Shown: positions 23,405-63,353, counted from the first letter of the stretch. The stretch is DNA of 64,000 nucleotides from Psammoneis japonica (GCA_008632985.1 QPGO01000009.1:248001-312000); one strand, 5' to 3'. Numbers and translations: made by a program. The notes: generated from the letters alone by a model not told the origin.

Positions 23405-23440
<36 letters not shown>

Positions 23441-23530
23441 CAAATTTTGCAGGGCAGTTCTCTGATGTTTGTCAGTTCTTTGAAGAAGTTGAGGACACCA
23501 ACAACAACTCTCTGCTCACTCAGCATGTCA
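22920..23530. other. Short TpA-depleted island with a (CA)n microsatellite (23408-23439) between divergent PAS-like genes
   Basis: The ~600 bp has essentially one TA cluster (~23050), while the flanks have normal TA content. The CA run is pure. Confidence 0.7.
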
Positions 23531-24017
23531 CACGTCCGAAGCTCGGTGAGACAGTCGAATTAGTCCGACGGTGACAAACGACGAAGTGGGGGGCGTCTTT
23601 GGAAGTGAGATCGTCGAAGGCGGTCTGATCGCCAGTGCGTTTGGGGTTTTCCCAGTACAATTTGTACGCAAAAGAAAACACGTAGGATCTGTCCAGAGGT
23701 CCCAAATACCCAATCGCACTGATTGACAGACTGTTTTAGTACAAATTCTACGTAACTTTCTTCGACAGTCTCACTTCCGAAGACGTCCCCCAGAAGGGTG
23801 ACGTCAATTTGCATACCCTAAATCGAAACGGAAAGCGAACGCTATTTTCGTCATATCGTTAAATAATGATCATTGACGGCTGAATGAGTCATCCCCTCCA
23901 GTTGATTGCCCACGAAGATGCGCCGTATGTATCGATGGTGGAATGAGGTGACATCATTTCGTCGATCGTGGTGCCTGTCATAAAATCAACAGCGAAAACT
24001 TCAAGGAACACATCACC

Positions 24018-28155: not shown

Positions 28156-28489
28156 GTTTTCAGTTGTAGCGGTATGTTGTATGGATGTTGGATGTTGGAT
28201 TTGTTTGTGTTGTTCAACCACGGGCGGTTCAACCGACGTTTGAACTCAAATGAATATATTTGTGACCTAATATAAAATTTAAAATTGAGCCGTTACAGAT
28301 ACTTTAACAAGTACATATCCAATTGAACATGCATGTTTATCAATTATTTTATAATATATGTATTTTTCATATATTTTTCCAACGGCTACTAACGCTGTTC
28401 ACGATAATTTCTAATTGACGCAAAACACACTACAGTGCATACAGTGCCATACTTCTTATGTTTTCGTTTGAATGAGCCATGATGGTGAC

Positions 28490-31000: not shown

Positions 31001-32227
31001 CTCGGCCGCATGTAGTTTCTCCCTAAAGCTATGCGGAATACAGTAGATACCTGAATCAATGACATTGCCTCCAGATAATTTGTCGCAAGGTACTTTCGAG
31101 CGAGTGTCACGGTAAGCATAAATCGCTTTGAATACTTCGCGTCGTGCGTTCAGAATCACGGTACATTAGACGAGGTGTCCGGATCGTTCTTTCAGTTTGT
31201 TTCGCCCTCAGCTTGACCTGCTCGGTTATCGGCTTGAACGCTTTTAGTAAAACATGACAAAGTGGAAACAACAATAGCAATGTCTATTGAAAGGCCAGCA
31301 AACGCACCCACGAGGTTATCGAGAGCAACACCACGGACCACGGACAAAAGAAACAATCGTCGCATACCAACTCTCAACTCTTCTGGCCGAGCAACTGTCA
31401 AGCTGAACAAGAACGCGAGAGAGACTGTGCCGAAAGGGTAAGAGAGTCCTACTAGCTATGAGCAGTCATTGCTTCTCGCGAAAGCATGACACGGCTAGCA
31501 GAATTTCAATGCGGAGCCCAAAGTACATGTTGTATGTGTAGATGACTCGTCTGGAACTGCATCATTTCCATTTCCGACAGAATGCTCTCTGGTTTCCTTG
31601 ACACTTGATACTATCGGCCATGAAAGTAACTCCAGTAGACCGAAACATCAATCGTATAAGTTACCGGTATGTGCTGGGGCACGGAAGCGCAGTGAGTTTG
31701 TCAAAACTGCCTTTGCCGGCCGAGTAGTGTGGGTCTACACCGGTACAAAACTCCACAGCGCGTCAAAAGTGCTACGGACGTAGCATTGCTGGCCTGAATA
31801 ATAAAAAAAAGGTCGACAAAACTTGAAAACAAAGAACCTACACGAGTTCTTCGCCTTTTTTTCCTCTACAGAGAGATCCTTTTCTCACGCCCAAGGCAAT
31901 TTTGCAGGATCATCTCTACATAGGTGCAGCAGATGCGAGAGAAGGCTGGCTGGAACTGAATACACGAGAAAGTACTTGAAACCCAGGGGCAAGCTTTCTG
32001 TACTCAAACTAAAGATTTGTAGCGCGCTACGAATCGTTTTCCCCCATCGTTCCATGCTCAATGCGACTGGCTTTGCCGCTTTTCTTTACAGCCGTTTTTC
32101 CCGTTTTTGAGCTGAAGCTATGGTACTCCCTCTATTAATACCAGTCACTGCACCAGCCATGTCGACCGACGGACATTTCCAGATGCACTGACTGGAAGAG
32201 ATCATTTCACCGTCGTTTTCAATTCAC

Positions 32228-40000: not shown

Positions 40001-40151
40001 CCTACAAATGAGTTTCGAGACTACTGCCTTATTCATGACGGAAGCAGCACTCCGCGAGCGCAAAGAAGAGCTCATCAGTCCAAGCGCTAACATTGTCCTG
40101 GGTCGACCCATCAAGCACGGAACCGGAGCGTTTGAACTACTTGCGAAGTAA
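34073..40151 (+). CDS. RPA1: DNA-directed RNA polymerase I largest subunit; exons 34073-34134, 34305-35970, 36212-36299, 36388-36425, 36543-37235, 37325-37609, 37692-40151
   Basis: CVTC...CPGHAGH zinc site, [29 protein letters not shown]^[14 protein letters not shown]^MN active site, [41 protein letters not shown] and MSFET. Acidic insertion typical of Pol I, no heptad CTD. All six introns are GT-AG and restore the frame. Confidence 0.95.
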
Positions 40152-43169: not shown

Positions 43170-44114
43170 GTTGATTCTGTAAAGAGCGGGAAACATGCAC
43201 GAGAGTGTGAGTGACAGAGAGGGACATGGGCTCAGCCATCAAGGGACGAACAAAGACGAACAAACACATCGTCATTGTGATCATGTGATCATGCACTTTC
43301 GCGCCAGAAGCGATGCCGGTTGCAGACAGACGGTGATGCGAGCATGCACGCCGGCCGGCTCGTGTGCGCGAACGTTCACGACACGATGTGGGTCTTGTGA
43401 GTCGAACTATTCGAAGATACAAAACATATCTTTCATCCCAGACCACTGCCGGTACCGGTTGGATAAGCACTATGCAGCACTGTGCACAATGGCATGAGCG
43501 ACGTCTCCAAATACACAAGGAGACTAGAACGCCTCGAAAGCGCGCGATGTGAGTCTGGAGAGTCGACCTATCCGGAAGATCCATAATATCTTTTCTTCCC
43601 GGACCACAAACGGTTCGACAAGCACTTCGCCCTGGCTGTGCATAATGGAATGAACGACGTCTTCAACGACACAACCCTAAGGAGCCTCGGAAATCCACAT
43701 CCACGAGGAAGTCTTCAGCGCATATTGACAACGAAGAAACAAGTTGGAGAAATGGGAGGGCGACAGGGTCACCCACGGCACCGAAAGAGCTATCACAGCG
43801 ATGGAAAGCAGCGAACCGTCTCTTCGTGGACCAATCGGCACTCATCAGGATTGCGCAGTCACTTTGACGATGAGTACAACCATTGCTCTTGCTCACCTTC
43901 ACCTGTTTAGCGGTAGTTCAACTCTTCAATCTTACGATCAAAATGTGAAATTGTGAGAGGCGAGTGCGTATGCGGGATTTTTGGCTGGTTCGTGTAGCCA
44001 TTCGACGAATATCTTTATCGTGGAAGCTGCCGGGACTCTCAAAATTTTCGAAGTACAATTTTGGCCATAACAATAATTTTGTATAAAATTTTATGAGCTA
44101 AAAGCTTCTTCAAC

Positions 44115-44825
44115 GGGCTAATATATTTTTGAACGGAAATATTTGCTAATTCATATATAATCATATGAATAGTTCACATTAAACACGACGAATCGTGAAA
44201 AGAATTTTGATACTACTAAGAACAACGGAGAATTTGTGTCAGACATATTCGACGATAATAGTCGAATGAAGAACATCACAAGATATAACGGAGAACTTGT
44301 ATCGCCTTTTGTAGCTAATATTTTCTGCAACGGAAATTCTGTACTTGGAACAACGGGAAATTTGGCATCGAATCTTGTCGCGCGGCCTCCTTTCCGTGAC
44401 CCCCATCTTTAGCGTGCACAAAATTTTGGCGCTATGATGGATTCTTACGTGGAAGATTCAACATCTACCTCAATAAAGGAGGCTGATATCATATTTGTGT
44501 AGCTAATATTTTCTTCAACGGAGATTTCGTTCTTTCCACCAATCAGAAGTCTTCTCTGATGAATCTTGTTTCAAATGGTTCTACGTGGCGAAGAAGTGTC
44601 TTCCAAGACTGTCAGAGATTTGTGCAGCTAACATTTTCGCAAATTATGTTCTTTCCACCAATCAGAAGTCTTGTCGGACGAATCTTGTCTTAAATAAGTC
44701 TACGTGCCGAAGAAGAAGAGGCCTCTGGATCGGCTCGGATGGGGATGGGGGGTCTTGTACGTACAGCATGTGGCAATCCCCAACGTCTTCTGCCACAATG
44801 CACTTTTCTGCACAACGGAAATTGC
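44115..44825. repeat. Diverged direct repeats at the left edge of the large depleted block
   Basis: GCTAATATTTT...CAACGGA motif at ~44118, 44314 and 44501. GTTCTTTCCACCAATCAGAAGTCTT...GAATCTTGT...CTACGTG(G/C)CGAAGAAG at ~44529 and ~44647. Confidence 0.65.
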
Positions 44826-46399
44826 CATTCCACTGCACGAACTTCGGTCAGACATTGAGTGACATCATCCCCGCGCCCCAGTTTGATTGCCGCTGTAGTT
44901 GTGCTGATTCTGTTGTTTCTTTTGCCCCTCAAGAGCGCGGCACAGTGAGCTGTTTTTTAACTTGCAAGGGCTTGGGATGAAACACCCTTCTCCTTCACAA
45001 CAGCTGGTGCTGCAGCTTTCAATCTCTGAGCTGCTTGCGCAAGAGTGACAGGGGCACAAGCAGCGGCTGTGCGAGGCCTCGCTTTGGCAGAGGCAACAGG
45101 CAGCACTTGCACGATGGTCGATGCGGAACATGGTCTGCAAGCAGCCATTGTTGGCACAAGCTCTTTTTCTGTCAAAAACCTTGCCCCCTGAACAAGCTCA
45201 CCAGCACATCACAAGCTCTTTGCTGCCCCCAGCAGCGAAACAGAGGTGGCAACCCAGCCGCCGCCAGCCTCACCCGCAGCCGCTTTTGGTCTTCTTGCCA
45301 CATGTTTTTGAGCTCCAAAAAAGCTCTTGTGTGACACAGGTTGAGTTTGGCATGGCGCAGCACTGCTCCACAAAGTGCCAGAGCCATTGCTTGAGAGAGA
45401 CAGCACCAGATGGAATGGGGTGGCAACAAATGGATCAGACTTTTTTGACTTCAAACAAGAGCAACCCTGTTTGCAGCAACAAGCCCAAACCAAGGCAAGC
45501 ACCAGCACTTTGGCTCCTGGAGGAGAGGTGCAAAATGCTCAAGTGCACAGCCACGTTTTCAAAATTGCCGCGGCTGAAAGAGCTGCGCTGCGCAGAGCTC
45601 TTGCAAATTTGGAGTGGTGAGCAGCGCATCTCTCAGTCACATTTCTTGATCCAAGAATCTCGCATCTTTTTTGAAGCTGTGTGCAATTCTTGCCATGCCA
45701 GCTGTTTCCCAGAACAATTGCTGGGAGAAGTTGTGGTCTGACACAGCTCTTTTTTCTGCAGCTCTGAGTGAGGTTGAATGCAAAGCGTCAGCAGCTGCTG
45801 CCTCCCATGATGTTGTGTGCTCTTTTGCAAGATCTTGCTCCATGGTGAAGGTTTGAAGCAAGTGGCCTGTGGCAACAAGCTTGTCTTCTGCCAAGCCCAA
45901 CCCTCAAAATGTGGTCATCTGGTCTGCTTTTTCTTCTGCCAGGCCCGCCCCCCCAAAGTTCAGCCTTTGAGACAACTTTTCTTCTGCCAGGCTTGCCACC
46001 CCAAACACAGCGACTGTGAGCCAGCATGTTGGGAAATCTCAAATGAGCCAACTGTGTGGGAGCACTCAGAGCTGTTGGCAAGTCTGGATGGTCAGTTTTT
46101 AACTGAGCTGCACCTCTCTTGGCCCCGCGGCTGCCACCCTGTTTGCCCTTGTTGAGAGCCAGCCTCAACTGCTGCCACATTTTGCCAACTCAGCGACACA
46201 TGCTCTCACTGCTCCCTTGCCTCTCACTGGTCTTTCTGTGTGCCCCCAGTTGCTGAGGGCCACCCCAAGAACCTCTTTGGACTTTTTTAGACTCATGTGC
46301 TGCAACATGCAGGTCAAGTGACTCCTCGTTCTTCTTGACATTGTCAATCTGCACAGCAAGGCACCCTTTCTGCTGTTGACCCCCCTGGCAGGTCACAAG

Positions 46400-48640
46400 A
46401 AATGTGTGCCCTTTGTCAAGCTGCAGCTCCACATGATGGGAGCTTGCAGAGAGTGCCAGCATTGCTTGGCTGGGGTCCACCAAAGACTGCCAAAGCTCTC
46501 AGCTTGCAGCTGTTGCATTGTCTGGTGGTGCCATCATGGGACCCCTGCACTCTTGAGTTGGGAACATCAAATCTGCTCCTGTTGGAGACAAGGTGATGTG
46601 GGGCCACAAAACCAAAACATCAACCTTGCAATGCCCAGCAACAGCTCTTGAAGTCTTGCCACAGACACTGTCAGTGTCCTCTGCTGGCAGCTGTTGGGTT
46701 GGTTGGCACCATCGAATCCTTGCATTCTGGAGTTTGGAGACTTGCTCAAGTCTGCTCATGTTGGGGCCAAGGTGATGTGGGGCCACAATGTCACAAGATC
46801 AATTTTGCAACACCCAGCCACACTTTTCAAAGTCCCCCTGGAGTCCACCAAACACTGCCAGTGTGTCCTTTGTCAGAAGTTGTTGGGATGGCTGGTGCTG
46901 TCATGGGGTCCTTGCACTCTGGAGTTGGGAAAGTCAAGTCTGCTGCGGTTGGGGGCAACATGACACAAGGCCACAAGGCCACAAAACTGACCTTTCAATG
47001 CTCAACCACAGCTCTCAAAGTCACACCTGGAGCCTGCCAGACACCAACAGTGCCCTCAACTTGCAGTTGGGAGGCTTGCTCATGTCATCATGTGCCCTTT
47101 CACTCTGGAGTTTGGAGGCTCAAGCAAGTCTGCTGCCAATGGGGACCAGAGATGATGTGGGGCCACAACACCACAAGACCAGCACAGTTCTCAAAGCAAT
47201 GCCTGGGGTCCACCAGAGACAACCAATGCCCTCAGCTTGCAGCTGCCTGTCAGGTTGGTTGGTGCCATCATGGGATTCCTGCACTCTTGAGTTGGGAAAG
47301 TCAAGTCTGCTGCTGCTGGGGACAAGGCAACATGGGGCCACAACACCACAAGATCAACCTTGCAATGCTCAGCCACAGTTCTCCAAGTCTTGTCTGGGCT
47401 TCACCAGACACTGCAAGTGTCCCCAGCAGCTTGCTGTTGTCAGGTTGGTTGGCGCTGTCATGGGGGGGACCTCTGACTCTGGAGTTTGGTGACTCAAGTC
47501 TGCTCCTGTTGGGGACAAGGTGACATGCTGCCACAACACCACAAGATTGATCTTGCAATGCCCAGCAACAGCTCTTGACATCTCATCTGGGGTCTGCCAG
47601 ATGCAGCTGCTGGGTTGGTTGTTGGCACCTTCATGGGATCCTTGCACTCTGGTTCTGGGAAGCTCAAGTCTGCTCCTCCTGTTGGGACAAGGTGACATGG
47701 AGCAATCACACAAGAAAGGTGCTGCACTGCTCAACCGTGGTGGTTGTTGCAGTGTCACCTTGGCCAGTGCTGTCATGGGGTCCTTTCATTCTGGAGTTGG
47801 GAAAGTCATCTCAAGTCTCTGCTGGCGGCGGTGGTGACAAGGTGACATGGGGCCACAACACCACAAGATCAACCTTGCAATGCTCAGCAACAGCTCTCAA
47901 AGCATTGTCTGGGGCCCAAAAAGGACTGCCAGTGCCCCCCGCTTGTTGCTGTCAGGTTGGTCAGTGCCATCATGAGATCCCTGCACTCTGGAGGTTGGAA
48001 GTTCAAGTCTGGCATTGTTGGGGACAAAGTGACATGGGCCACAACACCACAAGATCAGTGCATTGCAATGCCCAGCAGCAGCTCTGAAAGTGTTGCCTGT
48101 GGTCTGCCAGATGCCACCAGTGTCTTCATCTTGCAACTGCTGGGTTGGTTGGCAACACCACCATGCAGCCCTTTTGCATGCAAAGTTCTTGGGAAGTTCA
48201 AGTCTGCTCCTGCTGTTGGGACAACATGACATGGGGCCACAACCGCCAAGACAGGCCTTGCTCTGCTTGACTGTGGTGGTTGTTGCAGTGCCACCTGGGA
48301 TCCACAAGAAACGCAGCCAGTGCCCTCAGCTGCACGTTGTCTGCTTGGTTGGTGCCATCATGGTGGGTCCTTTCATTCTGGATTTGGGAGTTTGAAGCTT
48401 GCTTCTGACTGGGAGGATGCAAAAGGGCACTGCAGCTGTGCAACACCAGCCTCACACTGCTCAATGCTCAGTCAACCACAGCTCTTGGAGTGTCACCTGG
48501 GGTCTGCCAGAGACCACCTGTGCCCTCAGCTTGCTGTTGCTTGTTGGCTGGGCTGGCTGGTGCCATCATGGGGCTGCTTTTCTCTGGAGCTGGGAAGTTG
48601 AAGTCTGCAACAACCTTCTGGGGACAAGACTGAATTGGCA
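46400..48640 (+). repeat. Diverged tandem array of ~175-195-bp units (family B), about 12 copies
   Basis: GCACTCT(T/G)GAGTT...CAAGTCTGCT...GACAAGGTGA...GGGCCACAACACCACAAGATC anchors at ~46547, 46722, 46914, 47101, 47281, 47475, 47645, 47787, 47983, 48374 and 48580. Confidence 0.85.
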
Positions 48641-50469
48641 TGGGCAGCTTCTTGTTGAGGAGGAGGAGGAGGAGGAAAAGGAGGAGGAGAAGGAGGAACA
48701 TGTTGGCAGGAGGAAGTGCTGCAGCTGCAGCGCCCCCTGTCTCTGGGGGCTGCTGCTCTGGCTCTTTGTGGGCACACATCCAGCAACATGGTTGTGCTGT
48801 CTGAGACCACCTGCTCAACCAACTCAACAACCCCAACCCTGCAAGTTTCAACCATGATGAGAAGCAACATCAACAAAAGTTGTTGCATGCATGTGGATCA
48901 GCTGCAAAGATCAGCTGCAGTGCAGCAGCCCCACAGACACAAGCACTGGAGACAAACAAAAAAGCTGTGTGGGCCAGCACAAATGTGAAAATTTCTTTCT
49001 CAACAAGAGCTGGCCAAGATCACAAAAATGAAACATGCGCCAGTCTCTTTTGAAAACAGACATGCTGCACTTGGCTGAAGCAGTGCTCAGCACCCGGCAC
49101 CCAGCTGCCAAAAACAAATGACAACTCACAAGCAAAATGCGCTGGCAGCGAAGACCAGCTGCACAACAAAGTGCTTCATTCAAGTTGACCCAAACAGTTT
49201 GAAGCTTCAAAAACAAGTGCAATGAGAGGCCTTTTAAAAAAAATGACCACTTTGTCTGGAAAATGTCGTTGCTCTTGTTTAGAATCCATTCTTTCTTGTC
49301 AAGAATCCTGCTCTCTTAACAAGGGTTCATTGATGCTGCACAAATGCATTTTGACAATTTTGTTTCAACATGCCAAGTGGGATTTAAGACTTAAAATGAA
49401 TCAGTTTCACTCTGAATGCAGTCTTGATGATCAGCGAACAATTGTCATTTTGGAATCCGCCAACAATCAAAACAACATTCCAAGCAGGAAATGAGTCTCA
49501 ATGAAATCTGTTGTGCTCTGATGTGCACGTCTCATCCAGCATTTGCTGACTGCAATTCACCTGCATTGTTCAGTTCTGACAAACAATGAAGCTCATTTGC
49601 GCTGATGACTTCACAATGCACAGTTGTTTTGCTGTTTAATTTCTGGTTTGTGTCAGCTCTAACATGTCATTTCCACACTAAAAGAAAGGCACTGTCTTGT
49701 TTCCTGTTCCTCGTCCATGTTGTTTCTTTTCCCTTGCAAGTTCCCTTTTGTCCTCCATTGCCAACACACCATGTTGTCCTGCACTTGCAGAGGGTCGATC
49801 CCCTCCAATCACTGTCTCTCCATGGTCTGTCTCAGAAGTGTCCGGCAGCTGTTGCAACCCCACTCTTGCCTCTTGCCCATCTCTTTTCTTGCCCACGGCC
49901 TTTCCTGAAACCTGAGAAGACAGTGTGCAAATGTTCTTCAGTGTTTGGCATTTCTGTTGTGTTTGACCTGCTTGTCAAACTGTTGCTGCTCACCTTTTTC
50001 CATCTGCATCTCCATCACTCTCCTCTGCGCTCACTTGCTGTGTTGTCACAATGCCTGTGTGCAATGTGAGATGATTCCTGTTTGGTGCATGTCTGTCATG
50101 TTCGCACAGCTCATCACACTGCTGCTGCTGCTCACCTTTTTTGCATTCCTTCCCCCCTGACTCTCTTGTGCACTCACTTGCTGTGTCGCAACGATGCCTG
50201 TGTGCAACGTGCAATGTTTCCCATCAGTGCAAGTTTGTGTGCCTCACTTGTCCCAGGTCACTGTCTCTCTGTCTCATGCCTTGTGTCCCACATTTCCCCC
50301 TTCTCCTCTGCAACTCCACCTCCTCTCCCCGCCACTCTCTCCCTCATGGTCTTGGCTCTCCCGTGTGTTTTTGTGCTTTGTGTCGTGTGAGGAAATGATG
50401 ATGGCTGATGTTTTTGCAGCAATGTTGAGCCTGTCTGCCTGGTGATTCCTGCCAGCATTGGTTTTTAAG

Positions 50470-52700
50470 TGACAATTTTTTTAAATTCCATGCTCACATT
50501 CAGTTTTAAAGGTTTGAATGATTTGAAACAACTTGGTGAATTGTCCAGTCATCAAGGTTTTGCACATGTGTCAGCAGTTGGTCAACCCCTCATTTTTCAT
50601 CGTGTCAATGTGTTCTTGTTAAGAAGCAAATTGTCGCAGTCTTGCTGTGCAGGTGGAGCTGGCAAATCTCAAGCTTCATCACGTCAATGTGTTCTTGTTG
50701 AGATGCAAAATTTTCACAGTCTTGCTGCGCAGGTGGAGCTGGCAATTCTCAAGCTCAATCTCAGCCACAGGAGCACAGCAGCAGGAGCCCTCAGAGAAAC
50801 CAAGGCTGTGCTGCCACAGCTGCTGCAGCACCAGCTGATGGTCCCAACCCAGCAACTGCTGCCACTGTTGCTGCCTGCACAATGACAAAGCCAGCGCCCA
50901 TCATGCCAATGTGGGCTCGCACCATTCTCCAGCAATTGAAACCAAAAATCTTGAATTTCTCATGCACTGGTGTGACAAAATTTCCTGCAATTGCTGTTGC
51001 ATGCCCTGGCACCCAACGGAGTCTCCCACAGCCATCCTGCGATGACAAGTGGTCACTTGCAAGCTGTCACTCAGATGGCTTCATGGTCTCTGCACAGGTG
51101 TGTTGGCTGGGCCAAAGAAGCCCCCAGTCATGTCAGAGAGAAAAGGGGCCACATTGACACAAGACAAGCCTTTGCTCCCCAACCAAGGTTGTTGCCAGCT
51201 CTTGGGCTCCTGGGACACAATGGAGTCACCCAAGGCTGGCAAAAGATGTCTGGTCTGCTGAAGCAAGCTCATCACATCAGAAAGAAAAGTGGCTGCATCT
51301 GCCCAAGACAAGGCTTTTCCTTCCCAACCACCATTGTTGTTGCCTCCTCCTGGACCCAACAGAGTCTCTCTTGTGCCCGCCCCCAGACCACTGAGTGCTT
51401 GCACTGTCACACAGATGGCTCCCTTGTCTTTCTTGCAGGTTGAGCCACCAAAAGCCATCCCCAGGTGATGGAGTGTTTGCGCTGTCATGCAGACAGCTCC
51501 CTTGTCTTTCTTGCAGGTTGAGCAGCCACCAAAAGCCGTCCCAAGACAATGGTGGAGTGCTTGCACCATCACACAGATGGTCCCTTGTCTTTGCAGGTTG
51601 GCTGGTGCCTGCACACCTTTTGCAGCTGGGCATCTTCTTGTGTGGAGGAATCCAGCAAGGGGCTGCTGCTGCTGCCCAAGACAAGGCTTGCAGCTTCCAA
51701 AATCAAGAGTGCAAAGACACCACTGTCAGTTGGGCCAAGAACCCACTCAACAACTGCAGGCTGAGTGCATTCTTTGGGGTCTCCATGTCATGATGCAGGT
51801 GGCAGCAACTCAAACCAATGTGCATTGATGGCAATGATGATGATCTGGCTTGGCATTTGGCAAATGTTTGCTGGAACATGGGGTCACCACCACTGCATGC
51901 TCCACTTCAGTTCTTTCTTGAGTGGCCTTGGCCTGTGCACCATTCATGGCTGTGCCGTGCACCCCTCGGCAAGCCTGTTGCTCCAGTTGGAGACACCAAG
52001 ACATGCAACCAAACTCACAACCAGACAAGGCTTTTCCTTCCCAACCATCATTGTTGTTGCCTTCTTGAGGACCCAATGGAGTCTCTTGCAAATGTCCCAA
52101 GACAACACAGAGTGCTTGTGCTGTCACACAGCACAAGCCCCTTGTCTTTCTTGCAGCAGGATGGTTCTTGGCTGGGCCAAACCCAGTCATGCCAGAGAGA
52201 CAAGGTGCCACACCGACACAAGACAATGCCTTTGCTTTCCAGCCATTGTTGGTGTTGCATTCTCTGGGACCCAATCAAGTCATCCAAGGCCACCCCAAGA
52301 CAACAAAGCACTTGCACTGTCGCACACATGGCTTTCTTGTTTTTGCAGGTGGGGTGGCTGGGCCAAGAAACCCAGTCATGTCAGAGAGACAAAGGGCTGT
52401 GTGGACACAAGACAAGGCCTTTGCTTCCCAACCATTGTTGTTGTTGCATCCTCTGTGACCCACTGGACTCCTCCAATGCCACCTCAAGACAGCTGTGAAC
52501 CTCCTTTGCCAGACTGACACGCCCTGTTTGCCACATCTGTGGGCCTGGTGTTTTCACACCTTGTGAAGCTGGGCATCTTCTTGTGTGGAGGAATCACGCC
52601 TTGGGCTGCTGCTGCTGCCCAAGACAAGGCTTGCAGCTTCCAAAATCAAGAGTGCAAAGACACCACAGTTGGGCCAAGAACCCACTCAACAAATGCACAT
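50470..52700 (+). repeat. Second copy of the family A array and flank, inverted relative to 12.3-14.3 kb
   Basis: CCCAGTCATGTCAGAGAGACAA and GCAGCTTCCAAAATCAAGAGTGCAAAGACACC are reverse complements of motifs at ~13170 and ~12530-12560. Flank AATGTGTTCTTGTTGAGAT (50687) mirrors ATCTCAACAAGAACACATT (14184). Confidence 0.85.
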
Positions 52701-54374
52701 GAGTTGGACAAACCAGCCCCTTGTCGCAAAGTGATCACAAGACGCAGCCAACAGGATTCAAGGATGTCATTGAGTCACTGGCTGCTTGCATGATCACTCA
52801 ATGTGGGCTTGCAAAGAGCCAAAAGCCAAGTCCATTGGCTTTCCCCAGCACTGAGGACAATCCATGCATCCCCAAATGTTGTTGCCTCAATGTGAGCCTG
52901 ACACATGCAGACCGGCTCAATGATGCTGCTCCTGCACAAGAGCTCGTCCAGGAGATGAAAGATCTGGTTGCACACTTTGAAAAGGATGCAGCCAAACTTG
53001 CACACAAGATGGCCTTGCATGAACTTGAAGTTGTGAAAACCAACCAAGTGCAAGAATTGGTCAATGCTGGCCTTGTTCTCTTCCAATTCTACATTGGCCA
53101 TGCAAAAGAATTCAAAGGCTCTGCAGACCCAACAACACATCAACTCAGTGGAGTGTCGCTTGTGCACTGCTTGTGTGACTCACTGCCATCAACTTTCCCA
53201 ACAGACTGCCCTTGAAACTTCTCCCAAAGAAATCATCAAGGAAGTCCAATGTCAACTTTGACATGAAGGACCTGTCAATCCCGCAGACAGCACCCCTCCC
53301 TCTGCTCAAGAGATCAAAGATGAAGACATGCAAACCCAAGAGGACACCACGTGCACTCAGGTTGCACCAGTGGCAAACTTGAACCCACTGCACGAGAGCA
53401 AATGCGTGACACACAAACTGTCAGCAGGGGAGAGAGTTGCAAAAACAGAATTGTTCAGAGAGATGAAACAGCAGCAATGGCTTTCCAAGCAGTGGCGCTG
53501 TTGCTTGCTTCATGAGATGCAAAGACCGTGCCTTGGCAAGTTTAAATCTGAGCAGCTCTTCCTGCTCTTCCCAGTGCTTCTCTTCCTGCAGCGCTGGGTG
53601 GGGGTGTGCTTGCCAAAGTCATTGTCAGGGTTCAGGCCAAAATGGAGAAAGAAGAGCACTGGAGATGCCTTTGGAAATGTCTTTGGAGAGTCAAGAAAAT
53701 GTCAAACAAGAAGAAGCAGGATGATGTGGACCGAAGCCTTCTCCTCGCTTCCGAGAACACATCTTTCCCGTTCGTCCAATCTGTTGGACACCACTCAGGT
53801 CATAAAACAGAATGGTGATGCCAAGCAAATTCTTCCATTGTCTGATGCCATTGCCCCCTTGTTTTCATTGACAGCATCATGCACCGCACTCCTTCGGCTG
53901 GCGTCTCTCTGAATTGAAGATGCTGCAGTGTTGAAGCCACTCAACAAACGTCTTGCATTTCAATTTGTGGCACCCAGAAGCTCCTTCAGCTGCTTCAACT
54001 GTCCTTGGCATTTCACTGCATTGCCCCCTGCTCTTGCACCCATGTTTCCAAGCTTTGTGGCCTGGAATCTCGAGTGCATGCCTTGTTGATTGCCTCGCAT
54101 TGGATCTCATGTCCTCAATGATGCTGCCACCTTGGGTGCACTCCCTGCGTTGGTGGTGGACACCTGACAAAGAAGGCACACCCTCCATGTGCTCGAGATG
54201 CCAGTTCCTGGCTTCCAACATGCCCGCCCCCTTGGTTGAAAAGCTCATTGCCACAACAGCCAGGAAAGCCAGAGGAGAAGGCTTTGGTGCACACTGCATT
54301 TGGCGTGAAAGATCCTTGCTCTTCACAGACCCCACTGAAGGCATGTCCAAGACAGAGTGATCTTTTCAAAACTG

Positions 54375-54879
54375 TCAACCCTTCAACCACCGGACTTGAG
54401 CAAATCTCCACGGGTGGAGATTTGCTCCCTTGCATCACAAATGCAGTGAGTGAAGCAATTTCAGATGTGGGCAATGTCAAATTTGCGCAATTTTGTTTTG
54501 GAGCGCGCACTCGCCAAAAATCTCGGGGAACCCTTTTTGCAATTTAGAAAGTTCAATGTCGACTTTTAACACCGGGTTTTTGCAAGCTGCATTTGTGAAC
54601 AGAGGAGAACCAAATCTCAACCTTTGACAATGTAGGTTGTCATGAACTGCTGTTGCAGACAGACCAACAATGCCACACCCTTGGAGCAAATCTCCGCCGG
54701 TGGAGATTTGCTCCCAATGAGCAAATGCACGTGGCGCACTTCATGCAGATTCTGTGTGACATGACATTTTTGTGCTGTGTTCATTGTGTCATTGTAAAAT
54801 TGCACGACACATCACACATCCTCAAGCAGAGCAAATCTCCACCCATGGAGACTTGCTCCCCTGGTGGTTGAAGGGTTGA
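54375..54879. mobile_element. piggyBac-like MITE (~497 bp, 54379-54875) with ~50-bp TIRs, three 30-32-bp palindromes and apparently mutated TTAA target-site duplications
   Basis: Left end TCAA|CCCTTCAACCACCGG...GAGCAAATCTCCACGGGTGGAGATTTGCTC. Right end GAGCAAATCTCCACCCATGGAGACTTGCTC...CTGGTGGTTGAAGGG|TTGA. CCC...GGG termini flanked by TTAA are the piggyBac signature. Confidence 0.75.
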
Positions 54880-57800
54880 GAAGAGATTGGAAAAAAGGAG
54901 TGTGAGCAAAGAAACAGAGTGGATGAATGAACATCAAAGCATGGGTCAGCGACAATCACAAATGGCTGATGCAAGACCACACAAGTGTGTGGCCGATGTT
55001 TCTCGCCACAAATCAAACACACACCAGCGCAAGCAAGACAGGGGATGCTTTTTGTGTCAATGCCAAAGAGACAACTGCAGCAGCATGCAACAGAGGAGAT
55101 GCATTGAACGAGTGCACATGAAAGCATGGATCATGTCAATTCCATGTTTTTTGGTGTTTCTTGTTGACACGAGAGAATGATGTTTCTCAACACAGCCCCC
55201 ACCCACAGCCTGCCCAAGACATGGGAAACTTTTCATGACCATGGTCAATCAATGTCAGCAGTGGGCATCATCAGAGGAAGTGAAATGCACGAACCACATC
55301 ATTGCGGCTGTTGGCAGTTGGCGTCGATGTGGTGTGTGGTGTGGTGTGAAAAAATGTGCGTCCGCCGACCGCGAATTGGGCCACGCAGGTAAAAAATGGC
55401 CAAATTGTTTGTGACTCAATGTTTGCAAAAATGCACAATTGACAACTGGACAGAGTTAGCACATTTGCAGCAACTTTGTTTGTCAGTGAGTTTCATGATC
55501 AAATTAAAACATTTGCAAGAATGCACCATTGACAAGTGAGAAAATTGAAGATTGGTGGACAGAGACAGCATGCATGCAACAATTTTGTTTCTCAACAAGT
55601 TTCATTCTTAATGAGCACCAAAACATGTTAGAGACATTGCAAAATGATGCAGGCAATGATCACCAGGCTGACTGGCTTGGCTCCATGGCAAAAGGCCCAT
55701 CACCACCACACGAAATGACAAAGAAACACAGGATGCATCCAAGCAGTGCACAAACAATGACAACATTGCAGGAAGGCACCAACAAAAACCAGGAGTCTTG
55801 CAGCCATTCTGCACACATGCCAGCAACAACAAAAATCCATGGGAAAGGCAAGAGGTCAGTTTGCAGCAAACAACAACAAACTGATGATGTGCTTTCTTTT
55901 GCAATTTCTTTGTTTCTTGAAACTCAGACAAGTCAACAAAAATGGCCAAGGATGACATTGTGCACAGGCCAGCAGCAGAAATGGCAGCATTGTGTCACAC
56001 TTGCCAAAGAAAACATGCCAAATTGACAACTTTTGTGCTGTTTTCTGCCAGGGATTGCTGTCACATCTCACAATGAGAAGTTGTCACAACAACTGACTCT
56101 CTTTGAAGCATGGAAGATTGGAGCATGATGAGATGTCAACACAGCCAAGACCACCAAGTTGTGGGGCAGACTGCCAGCAGAGACAATGGGGCAGAAAATG
56201 GGGTGGGGTGGCAGCAGAGGGGACAAAGGCAATGGAGAATGACAGCATGGAATGGCTGAGGGCATGCGCCAAATGTCAGATGTTGCCAGGGTGAAATCAA
56301 ACATCATCAGAAGCCAAAATTGCAAAATGTGCCAGCTGACAAATGAGCAACTCAAATTGTCAGCATTGTGCTCCAGCCAATGAGCAAGAACAGCTGGCTT
56401 GTTGATTGACACATGTGTGCGCATGCACAGAAATGAGCCATGCTTCAATTCATTGTTGTCTCCCACTTTTCTAACCCAGCTGGCAATTGACAATGCTCTG
56501 ACATTCAAAGTTGTTGTGCACTGCTGTGGTTGAGCTCAAAGCTGATCTTGTCAGGAGCCCCCTTGCACTGTGAAACCAAATCATTTCAAGAAGTCTGGCC
56601 TCCCACTTTGCCAACACAGTTGATTGTCAAAAGCCACTCATTTGCTGTCAACTGGCACTTGACAAGAGCACAAGCTTCTCATCAAGAAGCAAATTTCATT
56701 TCTGGGCCAGAGCCAACAACATTTTCCAGATGCGTGCAACATGGCCCACATGTGGTTGTGTGCTGCACACAATTTTTTTGTGCACAACTTGTGCGCACAC
56801 ATTGGCAATTGGCGCCACATCTTGTGCCTCATTCTTCTTGCAAACTCTCTCTTTTTCAGAAGGTGGGGCCACCACAACTGCACACAAACTTGCTGAGGTT
56901 CTGGAATGCACACATTTTCCTCAAAAGTGCACCCTTTGGTGTGTCCACAGAGCACACCTCCTGAGCACATGCCTGCAGCTGGCTGTGGTTTGCAAGCATG
57001 GGGGTTTTCCATGTGTCAAAAAATTGCCTCTTTCTCCATCAGCAGCAGCCACTTCTTTGCTGTTTGAAAACTCATGAAATTGCTGCAGAGTTTGTGGGTG
57101 CATCTTGCAGATTCCCACCCAGCTGACAAACAGCAGATGGCAGGCCAGCATGTGCCTTGTGGCGTGACCATTCCAGCAGAGGCAAAGGACAGGCAAGTCA
57201 GGTGTGTGTGCTGCATGAGCACCCAAGCAACTTGCGCTGGTCTCTTTGCCAAGCAGATGCGCTGCTGGCATGATTGTGTGCCACCTGAGAGCAAGCCTGC
57301 ATCACAAAGGTTGTGCACTCAGCTGCTCCCCAAAGTTGCACCAGCAAGAATTGAGACAACATGTGCAAAGCTGCGCGCATCACATGACACTCACCAAGAG
57401 GGTCCCAAGATGAGCTCAGAGCAAAGCCACATCTTTGTGAGTGGCAAATGGGGAACAAGTTTGCATGCAAAAGAGGAAACACACAATCTGCACAACTCAG
57501 TGTTTCTCAGCAAAGTGCAGCAACTCAGAAATGGCCCCACTCAAATGGGCAAACTGGCCAGAGTGGGCAGCTGCCTCTCCTGTCACTCGTTGTTCCCAGA
57601 AAGGGCCAGATGGTGCAGCTCAACAACAACTGAGTGAACACAAAGCAAGGAGCACCACACCCAACTCTGCACATGGTGCAGGGCATGTGTGTTGCTGAAA
57701 GCTGGGGGTTTCAGTGGGCAGCTTCCCTTGACTTGAACATGGTTTGCTGCCACACTCAAGTTGATGTGGCACCCCCAACAAAGAAGCTTTGCAACTTAAA

Positions 57801-60800
57801 TTTTCCACAGGGAAAGCATGAGATGCCATGTCTGCCAATGGTCTCATGTGGTGTGCCAGGCACCACTTTGGCTTTTAGAAAAAAAACAATGGTGGGGACC
57901 TTCTTCTCCAAGACTTGTCTGTTGCACAGTTGCTCACAGAGACACAAAATGACCAGCTGACAGCAACAACAAGAGAATCCCCAAAAGACCATCTCTTGAG
58001 ACACTGGACAAACTCCTTGAGAGGCTCCAGGAAGCTGGAGCTGAGGCAAGTTCCAACAAGTTGACAGTTTCCTGAGCTCACTCAGGAGCACCATGGACAT
58101 GAGGTGACAGGAGCCCATCAGCTGAAAAGTGCAGCATTGCGCACACCATGCAACTGGGGCTGGCAGCAGACACCAGCAATGCCTTGTGTCATTTGGCAGA
58201 TCTCCTCCTGCAGCAGGAAATGTGCGAGTTGGGAGAAGTGTGGGATGCTGTGCAAGCCCACACAACTTCTTGCACTCACTCAGCTGAGCAGGCACAACGA
58301 CTTCTTAGACACATGTCAACTGTGAGTGGCCTGCACATGAGGGCAGCACACTCAACTGACTGGCACTCCCAAAGTCATGATTGGTGAGCAAAAGCTCTGC
58401 ATGTGGTGATGCCACACACTGCACAGCATTTGCCAAGAGCCAAGATGAACTTGGAGCAAAGCTCTGCATTTGAGGATGAAGATGCTCACCTGTGTGCATG
58501 AAGTGAGTGCACAACTCATGCAGCCAAATGATTCATGGCAAAAACTGCTGACTCAGAAGCTGGTCTTTAAGTGCTGATGAGACAGCAATCTTTGCAACAA
58601 CTGCTCAGCACCCATCTCCTGGCAGTTTGGAGTGCAGCGCGCAAGAGGTTGGGGCAACTGAGCAAGCTGGCAAGCTCAAGAGCAAAAGGGTGCTGATTCA
58701 CAGTTGCAGTTGGTTGTGGCTGAGATGTGCAGCTGTGGCATTTGGACATCTGGCACCTCTTGCAAGATGACTTGTGAGCAAAACTTCCAAGTGGGAGGCT
58801 GGGTGCACATTGAAGACAAAGCATTGTCCTTCAATGCTGTCAAGTGTTTGCACAACATCTGAAGAAGAACTCTTGCTTGTGCACACCCAGATGATGTGTG
58901 CCAGTGCATCTGGGTGTCAACTTGGAGCAGCAACATCCCAAGACAATTGGCAACTGGCCTTTTGCTCAGCCATGCCCAGCCAAAGAACTGTGTTGCCTGC
59001 CATTGCAGAGATGCAGAAGGAGCTCAGATCTGTCTTCCTTGGGCAGCACTTTTCCACTTTTCCATGCAAGCACCCACTGGCAGCCCCTGCATGTGTTTCC
59101 ATGTGTGCTCTTGCGCTGATGTTGCCCTTTTCAGATGGCATTTTGATGGGTCCCCCAACACCCTTTTGCCCCCTTCTGCCATTGGTGCACCCTCATTTCA
59201 CCATGATGTGCAACAATTTTTAGTGCAAAATGACTGGCATTGATGCCTTGTGGCTTGCATGCTTGTTGTCTGATTTGACATTTTTTGCAGATTCGGTGCA
59301 GTTTCTGCACAGAATCCAGTGCAAATTCCACATGCTTCAGAAATGTCCACTGACAATCACAACATCTTCAATGCAATCAACTTCCATCCACACCCAAAAG
59401 CCCCCAACAACTTCTTTTGCTCCTGCCAGCTGCCCAAGTTCTTTGCCACATGTGGTGACAGCACTGCCCCTGTTGTGGTTCTTGCAAGTGTTTGGTTGGA
59501 TGAACCACCAGTGTTGCTTGACAACCATCCATTTGCTGTGTGGATTGGCATTTCTGCACAGGATTCAGCATCAATCTCATGTGAGAAAAATGTTTCTTCT
59601 GATGACCTTCTCATCACATCACCAAGACTTCCCATTTCATGCCTGCAAGTCCCAAACACACCCCCTTTTCCACTTGCTGGCCTGACAAGATCATTGCTCC
59701 TGGCAGCAAACTGTGCACTTTTGTTCCAGTGCACGCAAATGTGAAATTCAGCCAGTCTTTGTTGAAGACAAGACCTGCCCTCACAGAAGCAAGGCTTTCC
59801 CCCCAGAGTTTGCACTGACTTTGAATTCTCTGCTTGATGTGATTGTCCTTTGCTGCGGCAGTTTGGGTGCATTGAATCCTCTCCAAAAGAAAGCAACAAC
59901 CTCATTCTTGTGCAATTTTTCCCTGAACTGTTGTCTCCAGTGTGCGCAGCTGCAAAGTGGTGGCACATTGATTGGCTTGTTGCACAAACTTCTGCTGCAC
60001 CCCTTGCAGGGTGCTGCACTGGAAGTGTGGGTTGGCCAGCACTGGTGTTGCTGGACAAACAAGAGGCAATGACACTTAAAATTGGGTTTGAAATTTTGTT
60101 GTCTTCCAACAGGCAGCTGCTGCACACATGCACAGATTGTGAAAACCTTGTGCAAAGCACCCAATTCCAAGCTCGCCAAGGACATGCACTGAAGTGTTCA
60201 CCAGAGATGCCATGTCAAATGTCACCACTGTGCCAAGTGGAGACACAACCAGGATGGAAAAAGCAGAAAGAGCAAATGTGACAAGAAAGAGACAGAACTC
60301 TCCTGTGCATGGAGAGCATGCCAACATGCTGCAGGGCAATGTTGGCACTTGTCAACAAACAGGAACAAAGACCAAGTGTGACAGGGCTGACTGGTGTGCA
60401 AGCCCCGCCAGAGTTGTCTGTGCAAACAACAAGAATGGTGCATTGCACGCACAAGAGCTTGTTCCGTGACATGCGTGCACAGCCTGCCACCACGCAGATT
60501 GCACCCCCTGTCATCAGCCAGACATCTGGTGCTCTGTGACCCTTGTCATGGTGGTGTGTGCAGCATGCACTGTGCTGACAACTGGCAGATGCACCAGCAT
60601 GTGCACCCTGTGATGCGGCCCCTCTAGAGGCAAAGGACATGCACAGATGCTTGTGCTGCACACACAGGCTTGCATGGCTCACACTCATTTTGACAACTCC
60701 GCAAAGAAACCTGCATGATGAGGCATGCTGAGCTGCTGTCCAAAGAGCCATGCTGCCAAGCAAATAAAACCCAAGCACACAAAGCTTGCCAAGAGCCAAC

Positions 60801-61198
60801 AACAGACAAGATGAGCCTGAAGCAATGCTTTTTGTTCAAAAATGGCTGAAGAGAAGCTCGCTTGCGTGCATGAAGTGAGCACACAACTTGCAAAAAAAAA
60901 ACATTTCTCAGCCAAATGTGCCAACTCAGAAATTGTGTTGCAGCCATTGGCAACAACAGTGACATTTGCTGTTGCTGTCACAAACTCATTTCCAAATTTG
61001 GCACATGAGGTGCCAGAGCTGAAGTGCAGCCTTTTCAGGGCAGCTTGTGGCCATTTCCCTCATCTGCCATTGCACCTTCCTGTTGAGCCAGAGTTTTTAA
61101 GATGCCAGCCAGAGTTGACACAACAAACCTCTTGATTGATCAAACAATCTCAGAACTCAGATTGGCGAGGTTCCAAAATGACCCATGACAAACCAGTG

Positions 61199-61226
<28 letters not shown>
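61199..61226. repeat. (GT)n microsatellite
   Basis: Pure GT run read directly. Confidence 0.95.
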
Positions 61227-61229
<3 letters not shown>

Positions 61230-62464
61230 ACAGAGAAAAAACTCTTGCCCACTGTGGTCTGATGTCATGAAACGTGCCCACTCCATGACCCTTGAGATCT
61301 GAGACACACCATGTGAGCACAAATGGGAAATTTGAAGGCAACTGCAACATGTCATCTGGGCCCACTGTGGACAACTGTCTCAACTGCAAAGAGAAATCCA
61401 CACACATCACCCTCCTTGTGGTTGATCACACCTTGGCTCTCAGTCCAGGACACTTGCTTGCCTCACCCACACTGGCTTTCTTGTGTGCTGCTGCTTCCAG
61501 CTCCTCATGCTCCACCCTGGACCTGTGCTTCCTCTCTTCCACAGCTGTCTGCCTTCAACGCATTTCATTTCATGACAAACTCCCCACAATGCCCATTTCC
61601 ATCCACTGTGGCCATTTGGAAATCACAGTGTTTTTCCAATGTGTGTTTTTGCACTGTGTGTCACTCTGCTGTGTCCAAAGCATCAGCAAAGCTGTTGCCC
61701 AGTTGACAGCAGACTGGCTTGCCCAACATGCCCTGAAGCTCACTGCCCCCTCTCTGCCACACTCACTGCCATCCCATCCACCTTTCATGTGCAGCACTTC
61801 TTCACACCCCTTTGTCATCCTCTCTTGCTCCACACCCCTGGGCAATGCAGCACACGACTCCATTCTAGCCAGTGGAGAGAGCTGGCTGTTAACCTGCACA
61901 AAAAGGAAAAATTCTGCAGGCCAACACAATGCATGGTTGGAGAGACACCCAGTCTCGAACATTTCCATTTCAAGCGGTTTTGTGGCGCTAATGCAGGAAG
62001 ATGAGGTGCCAGCAGATGAACAGTTGGATTGAAAACTGTAAGACGAAAGGAACAAGGACAAATGTGACATTTTAAGAGCTTTACAACCATCTAATTTTGA
62101 TTGGAAGGAGAGGCTACAACCTTTCGCTGTGGTTTCAAGGCAACGAAGCCATCAGGGGGCGAATAGTTCAGCTCTCCATGGATGAAAAGAATTCTAGATT
62201 ACAGCCTTGTTCACCACAGAAGCAGCTCCCTACTCGAGCACAAAGAAGGACTCGTTCATCCAAACGCCAACATTTTCCTTGGTTGACCCACCAGTTCGGA
62301 AACGATGGCATTCGAGTCACTCGGAAAATCGACCATCACTACCTTTACGGGCATCAAACTTTTGTATTGCTCGCCGCTGGCTGGTTGAAGCAACAAATGG
62401 CCCGAAACCCAAATAGATCCACTCATTGACAGCCTTTAGTAGAGATTGCGTGATGCCTACTTTG

Positions 62465-63353
62465 TTAACCGATAGCTTGGGCATGTCGCTCTGATGCTTG
62501 ACGCGAAATGTGATTTTTTGACTTGCTGCTATCCTCCTCCCGAGATTCCACCAAATAGTGAGACACTACATTGTTTGACACCACGGGATAAACGGCGAGA
62601 GCCTCTTGACAACCTCCAAACAAAGAGTAAACAATTGTTCCAAAGTCATCATGATTTGAGGGCAGCGGACTATCACGTTTCTGGCAGGAATTGCTGGATG
62701 CTTTCCGATGCGCATAGGCGGCATTTGCATAGACCACTTGATACGGATGCTCAGCTTGCATTAATAGTCTACGATAAACAATAGAATACAAATTATAGTT
62801 TGGAATGCACGGTTCGGTCGAATGAAAAAAGAATGAAGCCGTATCTTTGAACGTACCTTGGCAATCGCGTAAAGGAGAGGGTATCTTCGAGTTCCAAGTA
62901 TCCACCGAGCGTCATTCCTGGAAAATGTAATGGTAAATCTCTATTGATGTGACTTTGCTTCTTGCTGTAGATTTGTTGTGATGTCGAAGAGTGCTCTAAA
63001 TATTCCGACAAGAGTTGCGGAATCTCTCGCAGCAAGACCTCTGGAGACGAAAAGATCTGTTGCCTCGGTGATTGGAAGGAACGACTGCGTACAACTTTTG
63101 TCAAAGTCAAGTCGATTTCTGGATGCACATGGCGCCGTTTCCTCTTTTGTCTCGTCATAATTTTCTCAGAGACATGTTTCTCACAAAAGCTTTCGTCTTG
63201 TTCGTCATCGCCATGGTATCCCGCCTCTTCAACAGTGGTATCCAGCGTGTTCTGTGAGGGATCCAACTCCCGAACATGCCGTTGCTCTCTACCAAATGTT
63301 TCCTCGTTTCTTGCATTCATATTAATTATCGTCTCGCGGTATTGTTCTTCCAT
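62465..63353 (-). CDS. Short protein with degenerate C-terminal PAS-like domain (paralogue C); exons 63353-62857 and 62768-62465
   Basis: GTACGT...GTAG intron 62856-62769 joins DTLSFTRLPR^LLMQAEHPYQVVYANAAY. Same intron position and phase as paralogues A and B. Confidence 0.7.

Follow-up and report, generated by a model that had tools for sequence, protein, structure and literature searches.

The 64,000-nt window of the Psammoneis japonica genome analyzed here (GCA_008632985.1, QPGO01000009.1:248001-312000; "the window" refers throughout to this whole stretch) contains five sharply bounded blocks that have lost nearly all of their TpA dinucleotides (TA) and most of their CpG (CG), with TpG and CpA (TG, CA) in great excess. 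The depletion of TpA is restricted to these domains, and the regional, TpA-targeted mutational process behind it is very probably real. Observed/expected ratios (o/e) in sliding 1-kb windows were 0.00-0.10 for TA, 0.03-0.5 for CG and 1.6-2.1 for TG/CA in the five blocks, and about 0.6, 1.0 and 1.1-1.3, respectively, in the remainder of the window, which confirms the five depleted blocks amid normal neighbours that a first-pass annotation had described from the sequence alone. With block boundaries set by the spacing of TA and expected counts taken from base composition, the blocks together (26,303 bp) have 50 TA where 1,660 are expected (o/e 0.03) and 332 CG where 1,621 are expected; a comparison set of non-block DNA of 26,203 bp has 1,083 TA and 1,034 CG. 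TG and CA together are nearly doubled in the blocks, a gain that matches what TA and CG have lost, and G+C is 0.50, compared with about 0.48 outside.

The longest TA-free runs, in block 5, reach 2,947 bp, whereas outside the blocks a TA is found every 26 bp on average. The block edges are defined to within 100-200 bp: the number of TA per 200 bp drops from 7-11 to 0 across one or two 200-bp bins, and the flanking genes have a TA o/e of about 0.6, so that the five blocks form discrete regions of the kind described for the regional TpA hypermutation of Bigelowiella natans, discussed below. When every TA and most CG in the non-block DNA were converted in silico, the resulting o/e of the 16 dinucleotides agreed with those of the block (r=0.97). 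Among 3,949 1-kb windows from 160 other loci (80 giant-virus contigs and 80 metagenome contigs, the latter short and gene-centred and hence uninformative on other diatoms), none combined a TA o/e below 0.25 with a TG/CA o/e above 1.4.

The direction of the change can be read from the remnant of a cellular gene of the Mpv17/PMP22 family in block 1 (Table 1). This pseudogene, which has an in-frame TGA at 10,223-10,221 and was translated by read-through (P0122), has at least 120 homologues at 43-67% identity among the matches listed, mostly from diatoms where the organism is named, and the alignment comprises the first 80 of these 120. None of the six conserved tyrosine columns, five of them conserved at 0.99 or above, has kept its Tyr, the residue being His (CAC) in three, Cys (TGC, TGT) in two and Phe (TTC) in one, whereas 99 of the 130 other conserved columns are kept (Fisher p=3e-4). 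Over the 227 aligned columns, the pseudogene has no Tyr at all, while each of the 80 homologues has 6-11; it has 11 His compared with a mean of 5.2, and 6 Ile compared with 11.1. Other changes that fit TA>CA/TG include Val GTA>GCA, Ile ATA>ATG and, in two codons preceded by a T, ATC>GTC, bringing the TA>TG/CA changes to nine relative to the 80 homologues. Changes that fit CG>CA/TG include Arg CGA>CAA, an invariant Arg converted to a stop (CGA>TGA), Ala GCG>GTG and, after a C, GGT>AGT. Of the 14 changes flagged by the script as explained, 13 were kept; L254P was dropped as a TA change, both bases of a single TA having to change to produce it.

Adenines in contexts other than TA were spared in the same gene, with Lys, Asn, Gln and Glu kept at 15 of 17 conserved columns. 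Once the 13 explained changes are subtracted, the pseudogene departs from the consensus at about 24 of the 136 conserved columns, and functional homologues depart at 12 +/- 7 (maximum 29); because this residual divergence lies within the range of functional homologues, TA would have been lost far faster than by background decay. The only TA left in the 771 bp of the pseudogene is at 10,350, in TTTAGG. The Tyr and other derived codons thus indicate that TA was mutated to TG/CA, rather than these dinucleotides being inherited or selected, and the polarity TA to TG/CA is read directly from the codons of this gene. The polarized comparison therefore upholds the second, domain-limited mutator from TpA to TpG/CpA, acting on either strand, that had been proposed in the first-pass annotation.

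Repeat copies, in which the first-pass annotation had proposed to tabulate substitutions, offer a second line of evidence. In alignments of satellite units, TG is opposite CA in 11.7% and CA opposite TG in 13.1%, compared with 1.9-5.0% for the double-transition partner of each other non-CG/TA dinucleotide, which makes TG<->CA 3-5 times commoner than any other double transition among tandem-repeat copies. Single transitions to TA or CG amount to 0-1.4%, compared with 6-16% for other dinucleotides, and TG/CA polymorphic column pairs number 17 of 346, each other double-transition pair accounting for 1-3. When the window is compared with other copies in the genome, the 40 differences with the best support include 11 in which TG/CA of the window stands against CG, 3 in which it stands against TA, and 5 with the reverse direction for CG. 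As judged from these alignments, the satellite copies diverged by TG<->CA after duplication.

Both lines bear on the alternative that the composition is native, that is, that the blocks derive from foreign or selfish DNA already poor in TA and CG, or that selection acts against both dinucleotides. Many viruses under-use CpG and UpA, parts of the blocks are multi-copy, and the sole recognizable host gene in them is one pseudogene, all of which would suit such an origin. This alternative is nevertheless very improbable, since a cellular diatom Mpv17 gene shows derived Tyr>His/Cys and Arg>stop changes relative to its 80 homologues, the satellites have the TG<->CA divergence that arose after duplication, the depletion is equal in single-copy and multi-copy parts, and an o/e of 0.03 is far under the biases of the control loci, giant-virus contigs included.

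An artefact of sequencing, base calling or assembly caused by modified DNA, the base-calling form of which the first-pass annotation had raised as a possible refutation, is even less probable, to the point of being nearly negligible. It is the case that modified bases can give systematic miscalls in long-read assemblies, and at two single-copy sites, 48,178 and 58,093, the window's CA is a CG, supported at full depth, in the contigs of sequencing run X1. These sites may differ between alleles or strains, may still be undergoing CpG decay, or may have been misassembled at a methylated CpG. Run X1 contains 77% of the block's sampled words, and its k-mer contigs show no difference from the window across 44,001-46,648 (2,648 bp, spanning the left edge of block 5), where the depth of 60.9 equals that of the flanking gene; elsewhere, matches over 3,367, 1,857 and 1,798 bp have 0-1 differences. 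X1 may be the assembly's own data, so that its match rules out an artefact of the assembler but not one of the chemistry. The latter is unlikely because every site is fixed as TG or CA and paralogous copies differ in which of the two they have, whereas a symmetric modification at the palindromic TA would be expected to give conflicting TG and CA calls between strands. The pseudogene also has an ordinary premature stop.

The losses of TA and CG have different edges and therefore reflect two processes, in agreement with the first-pass annotation, which had set the mutator apart from CpG decay. At 44,959-45,700 and 9,640-10,400 there are 0 TA and 5-7 CG per 200 bp (7-11 in the flank), the edges of the two losses lying about 0.7 kb apart, and in blocks 2-4 TA has been lost to 95-100% and CG to about half. 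The loss of TA is therefore the faster or wider process, one for which local CpG decay is not needed, and it is independent of that decay. A model of CpG decay alone, with other dinucleotides unaffected, fails: the CG loss is present, while the TA loss is stronger and is uncoupled from it at the edges. The CpG decay has a context of its own, with survival in all five blocks of 68-84% for GCGC, 3.5-17% for TCGA and 13-32% for ACGT and CCGG, that is, a preference for a 5' T (TCG > ACG ~ CCG >> GCG). Two offsets were also observed in the blocks: TC and GA are at 0.91 and 0.92, where the simulations of TA/CG conversion predict 0.99-1.03 and 1.07-1.12, and TT and AA are both at 1.24, where 1.12-1.15 and 1.14-1.18 are predicted. 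These could be due to a weak extra TC>TT process or to a different ancestral composition.

The uncoupling of the two losses also bears on error-prone repair, one of the candidates of the first-pass annotation, in which T:G mismatches at methylated CpG would recruit a Y-family polymerase of the pol-eta type that introduces A>G at WA (W, A or T). TA loss and CpG decay do share their domains, and pol eta is known from somatic hypermutation to prefer A>G at WA, most strongly at TA. Yet this candidate fits poorly and is considered improbable: AA is not depleted but, with TT, enriched (o/e 1.24 compared with 1.13), the Lys, Asn, Gln and Glu codons of the pseudogene were kept, and TA is gone where CG is near normal (44.96-45.7 and 9.64-10.4 kb), the reverse of what a trigger by CpG repair predicts. 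Moreover, the near-absolute immunity of TTAA, described next, is no known feature of pol eta.

The few TA that survive follow a rule that depends on the flanking bases. They lie in YTAR (Y, pyrimidine; R, purine) in 39 of 50 cases, compared with 156 of 1,083 outside the blocks (p=4e-22), and RTAY occurs once in the blocks and 361 times outside, a survival of about 0.3%. TTAA, by contrast, is present 21 times where 23 are expected (91% survival), whereas survival is 0-5% in every TA class in which, on either strand or both, a pyrimidine follows the A. An additive fit over the two strands, in which these act independently and which reproduced all ten context classes, gives values of rate x time of 0.04 for TAA, 1.23 for TAG, 2.65 for TAC and 3.67 for TAT. 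The target order read from these contexts is TAT >= TAC > TAG >> TAA, with TTAA spared. In simulations, a TAY-biased process had a root-mean-square deviation of 0.083 from the block dinucleotides, compared with 0.110 for a context-free and 0.148 for a TAR-biased process, and also best reproduced the raised GC and lowered AT dinucleotides. The most enriched trinucleotides are TGC (1.9x) and GCA (2.2x), and the least enriched TGA (1.07x) and TCA (1.23x). The autocorrelation of the TG/CA labels is about 0 at lags 1-20, with no strand-coordinated clusters; TG and CA being randomly interleaved, the process looks as if it acts site by site on both strands, not in bursts on one strand.

Here it is proposed that a region-targeted mutator drives A:T>G:C transitions at 5'-TA-3' nearly to completion, a change of the A of the top strand producing TG and a change of the A of the bottom strand producing CA, and that a slower decay of CpG to TpG/CpA runs alongside. 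The TA process would hit the strands at random, site by site, in a manner dependent on the base after the A. The most likely chemistry would be a TadA/ADAT2-type deaminase recruited to silent repeat domains, where it would turn DNA adenine into hypoxanthine, to be read as G at the following replication. The outcome would be irreversible inactivation, with the loss of Tyr codons, of motifs resembling TATA and of all stop codons but one, and an ordinary gene caught within such a domain was killed. The deaminase is suggested by the base before the edited A, which in TadA/ADAT-type enzymes is T: only TpA has been lost in the blocks, and ApA, CpA and GpA have not. This strict 5' T fits these enzymes, and the preference for a following pyrimidine fits them in part. 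The first-pass annotation had linked such an enzyme to a preference for TAC; a pyrimidine is indeed favoured after the A, whereas the order found, TAT >= TAC > TAG >> TAA, is not that of TAC first.

From the sequence, we infer that the process is enzymatic, that A and not T is the base changed, that a deaminase is the agent and that genome defence is its role. This explanation as a whole, with the region-targeted TpA mutator, the slower CpG decay and the TadA/ADAT2-type deaminase, is considered moderately probable, and adenine deamination as the process itself is given close to an even chance. Several points weigh against it. An A>G change on one strand and a T>C change on the complementary strand look the same in the sequence. 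The expected contexts are those of the present non-block DNA, which is mostly coding and is assumed to resemble the ancestors of the blocks. The Tyr>His change at residue 151 of P0122 follows a T, a context that the fit calls refractory; the base preceding it may itself have changed. Processive single-strand deaminases often leave strand-coordinated clusters, and there are none here. Nor does the preference for the following base (T >= C > G >> A) coincide exactly with that of ADAR (G) or of TadA (C). A single pseudogene carries the polarity, no second recognizable gene remnant having been found in the blocks. Finally, present-day activity, a role in defence as opposed to a by-product of heterochromatin, and the way in which domains are chosen are points that we infer as well.

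The ambiguity between A and T leads to the alternative in which thymine is the base changed. A TET/JBP-type dioxygenase or other enzyme would modify T at TpA in silent chromatin, for example to 5-hydroxymethyluracil or 5-formyluracil, and mispairing with G or faulty repair would produce T>C. TA being palindromic, the context data fit T>C at (A>G>C>>T)-T-A equally well, and both decays would then strike a 5-substituted pyrimidine before a purine. In addition, 5-formyluracil mispairs with G, and in dinoflagellates 5-hydroxymethyluracil is found preferentially at TpA. However, the thymines of TpG are stable, TG having risen to an o/e of up to 1.9, which would demand an enzyme with a strict requirement for the A that follows; the data on B. 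natans, as far as the text of the preprint goes, leave A versus T unsettled, its authors favouring adenine deamination. A change of thymine is regarded as rather unlikely, and adenine deamination is kept as the preferred chemistry.

TpA hypermutation is not categorically new. The author of the first-pass annotation knew of no prior description, and the present form of the blocks does appear to be unreported, but a 2026 preprint on a chlorarachniophyte describes a process with the same signature (Mettrop et al., bioRxiv 10.64898/2026.01.13.699255). According to its text, two integrated viral regions in mutation-accumulation lines of B. natans mutate at about 1000x the background, 230 of the 231 mutations in these regions are A>G/T>C, all at TpA, and an ADAT2-like DNA adenine deaminase is proposed; diatoms, CpG and trinucleotide context find no mention in the text available (bioRxiv 10.64898/2026.01.13.699255). 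As described there, B. natans and P. japonica have in common A>G/T>C changes only at TpA, giving TpG/CpA, in discrete regions adjoining normally mutating DNA, and in B. natans, too, the footprint is a depletion of TpA and an enrichment of CpA+TpG in clustered 1-kb windows, the process was compared with repeat-induced point mutation (RIP) and a DNA adenine deaminase was proposed. The two cases differ in lineage, P. japonica being a stramenopile diatom and B. natans a rhizarian, and in saturation, with a Rho_TpA of about 0.03 over 17 kb in P. japonica and, in the preprint, of 0.45 for the nucleocytoplasmic large DNA virus (NCLDV) region of B. natans. What can be recognized as targets in P. japonica is satellite DNA, multi-copy non-coding sequence and a cellular pseudogene, compared with the integrated viruses reported for B. 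natans. CpG decay accompanies the loss of TA in P. japonica, while the text on B. natans is silent on CpG, and the rule on the following base, with TAA/TTAA spared, has no counterpart reported in the main text of the preprint. On the other hand, the rate in B. natans was measured in mutation-accumulation lines, according to the same text, whereas the process in P. japonica is known from its footprint. The literature search found no report of TpA loss in diatoms, of its saturation, of a coupling with CpG decay or of a flanking-base rule, and the P. japonica blocks are the first diatom case found; they also bring to light a process run to saturation, TA loss uncoupled from CpG decay and a rule set by the flanking bases.

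Fungal RIP and the process in P. japonica are alike in producing irreversible, near-saturating, dinucleotide-specific transitions in repeated DNA, within blocks with sharp borders, and in that both can spill into adjoining single-copy genes. They run in opposite directions: TpA is the product of RIP, formed from CpA/TpG, and the substrate in P. japonica, where CpA/TpG arises, the mutated pair being A:T instead of G:C. The defining marks of RIP, C>T at CpA/TpCpG, raised TpA/ApT and lowered G+C, are absent from the blocks. As for duplication, the trigger of RIP, single-copy stretches have been hit equally, and a 295-bp tandem pair, 96% identical, at 6,647-7,194 is untouched. The CpG decay, on the other hand, has TCG as its fastest and GCG as its slowest context, a pattern not expected of plain deamination of 5-methylcytosine (5mC) and one that recalls the target of the RIP-like TpCpG hypermutation reported in Pucciniomycotina, basidiomycetes (PMC3318451). 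Diatom DNMT4 has been reported to be related to the RIP enzyme RID, and diatom transposons to be CG-methylated (PMC9998398). Decay of methylated CpG in repeats, known for diatom transposons (PMC9998398), resembles what is found here in that CG turns into TG/CA in repeat-rich, silent DNA, as in the Arg CGA>TGA/CAA changes of the pseudogene; however, deamination of 5mC cannot remove TA, and the TA loss is more complete and extends beyond the loss of CG.

As for the proposed agent, TadA and ADAT2-ADAT3 share with the process a strict T (U) before the edited A, at tRNA positions 33-34, and a product read as G. A pyrimidine after the A is favoured as well, as in the TadA substrate UACG, and TadA has been engineered into base editors. 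Natural ADATs, however, act on tRNA and are not known to be directed to chromatin domains, and in the blocks TAT is mutated at least as readily as TAC, with TAG still mutated. Activity on DNA has been reported for amphioxus ADAT2 (PMC10354150).

The blocks are repeat-rich, apparently non-coding domains of a diatom nuclear chromosome (Table 1). Summed k-mer depth in block 5 reaches 3,945 at 54.1-54.8 kb, 2,269 at 52.2-52.9 kb and 1,468 at 47.2-47.8 kb, and 60-81 at 44.9-46.5, 56.7-58.6 and 60.5-61.8 kb, with 61 in the flanks, and the multi-copy and single-copy portions are equally depleted. The stretch of highest copy number, at 54,145-55,412, is less decayed than the remaining block 5, with a CG o/e of 0.3-0.5 and 7 TA. 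The 295-bp tandem repeat outside the blocks mentioned above, with 1.9 copies, has a normal to high TA o/e (0.9-1.1), so that this young, short duplication has not been hypermutated.

Among 243 stop-to-stop ORFs of at least 70 aa in the blocks, the only Pfam match above its curated cut-off was that to Mpv17; the other matches (E 2e-4 to 8e-3) were below the curated cut-offs and were treated as chance. None of the 153 such ORFs of block 5 has a Pfam family at or above its curated cut-off, and no family was found in the six read-through frames of 28,401-31,102 (block 4). Viral and transposon Pfam domains are likewise absent from the 243 block ORFs and the block 4 read-through frames, sequences that may be too decayed for them to be recognized. 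The ORF at 10,586-11,239(-) had no homologue, and that at 28,718-29,512(+) had as its sole HMMER match P0243 (E 3e-10), over a short stretch only, and was set aside as uninformative; P0243 (653 aa) is itself a tandem array, with a 59-residue unit present about eleven times, and has the look of a satellite from another organism in translation. DNA free of TA has no TAA or TAG on either strand, which produces long spurious ORFs in the blocks, up to the 416 aa of the ORF at 12,967-14,214(-), which runs across a satellite array.

Table 1. Blocks, repeats and genes in the window (positions counted from its first nucleotide; TA, CG and TG+CA as observed/expected counts).
Feature	Position	Strand	Description
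Block 1	9,635-15,075	none	5,441 bp; TA 5/347, CG 53/331; holds the pseudogene and satellite array A
Mpv17/PMP22-family pseudogene	9,723-10,493	-	PF04117, E 8.8e-11, 42 bits (cut-off 27); in block 1
Satellite array A	12,679-13,885	none	Units of about 190 bp, 6.3 copies, 74% matches
Block 2	17,292-19,011	none	TA 5/107, CG 53/108; TA erased, CG half decayed
Block 3	23,054-23,561	none	Short; TA 0/31, CG 14/31; includes a (CA)16 run
Block 4	28,510-30,235	none	TA 4/118, CG 43/97; weaker depletion to about 31 kb
RNA polymerase large subunit	34,198-40,151		Three ORF pieces; domains assigned for the first and third
Collagen-like gene	40,827-43,196	-	789-aa ORF; Pfam Collagen, E 8e-98
Block 5 (main)	44,959-61,866	none	16,908 bp; TA 36/1,057, CG 169/1,054, TG+CA 3,905/2,114
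Edge zone of block 5	44,959-45,700	none	TA 0, CG 5-7 per 200 bp (CG 7-9 in the flank)
Satellite array B	46,465-48,628	none	Units of about 183 bp, about 11 copies, 65-73% identity
Inverted relatives of array A	50,991-52,697	none	In block 5; 72-86% identity to 12.5-13.9 kb (self-BLAST)
Highest-copy stretch of block 5	54,145-55,412	none	Summed depth 1,357-3,945 (61 in the flanks)
Other eukaryotic genes			BT1 transporter, EIPR1-type WD40 protein, CNNM protein

The genes of the window are cellular. The large subunit of the RNA polymerase resembled giant-virus polymerases in Atlas, and a viral origin of the window was considered on that account and rejected, the protein being the cellular Pol I subunit RPA1: in the PDB it is best matched by RPA1 from fission yeast, budding yeast and human (1e-145 to 1e-133), and its nearest database relatives are RPA1 of diatoms (58-64% identity), followed by bolidophytes (53-56%) and then other stramenopiles. 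These relatives identify the window as diatom nuclear DNA. A metagenome contig (L095, 1,864 bp) encodes at 1,523-1,864 an RPA1 fragment 95% identical over 114 residues, pointing to a close relative of P. japonica in a marine metagenome. The TA-free stretch at 41,084-42,251 was considered as a further block and rejected, as it lies in the collagen-like gene, which is built from 9/18-bp repeats coding for GXY and has 64% G+C, a strong strand skew and a CG o/e of 1.5; its lack of TA stems from the codon repeat and not from the mutator. Within a 685-aa ORF of normal composition with no Pfam family lie two tandem repeats, one at 4,698-5,169 with a 249-bp unit (93% matches) and one at 5,582-5,762 with a 93-bp unit (82% matches). 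Neither tRNA genes nor Rfam families were found in the 64-kb window. A contig of run X2 is spliced over an 88-nt GT..AG intron at 62,769-62,856, so that this run is probably cDNA; it covers almost none of the block and was used neither for nor against its expression.

The blocks reveal the end state of such a process: kilobases with no TA, killed genes, and satellites that diverge only by TG/CA switches. In practical terms, gene callers are misled by the spurious ORFs, and homology to transposons or viruses is hidden. The process also runs counter to models of algal genome evolution in which mutation is taken to be biased towards GC>AT, and the flanking-base rule is a biochemical fingerprint with which candidate enzymes and the B. 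natans mutation list can be tested. A natural adenine editor of chromosomal DNA, if true, would be of interest to the fields of genome defence and base editing. Going further, it is conceivable, though unlikely, that diatoms and by extension much of SAR (stramenopiles, alveolates and Rhizaria) have a chromatin-guided editor of DNA adenine in T-A-not A, which would strip silenced domains of TpA down to the last TTAA, and that the CpG decay is caused by this deaminase, or by a sister enzyme working on C, instead of by spontaneous deamination of 5mC; the two activities together would form a dual A/C genome defence shared by distant algae. The saturated footprint in a diatom suggests that the process is either common among algae or of multiple origin.

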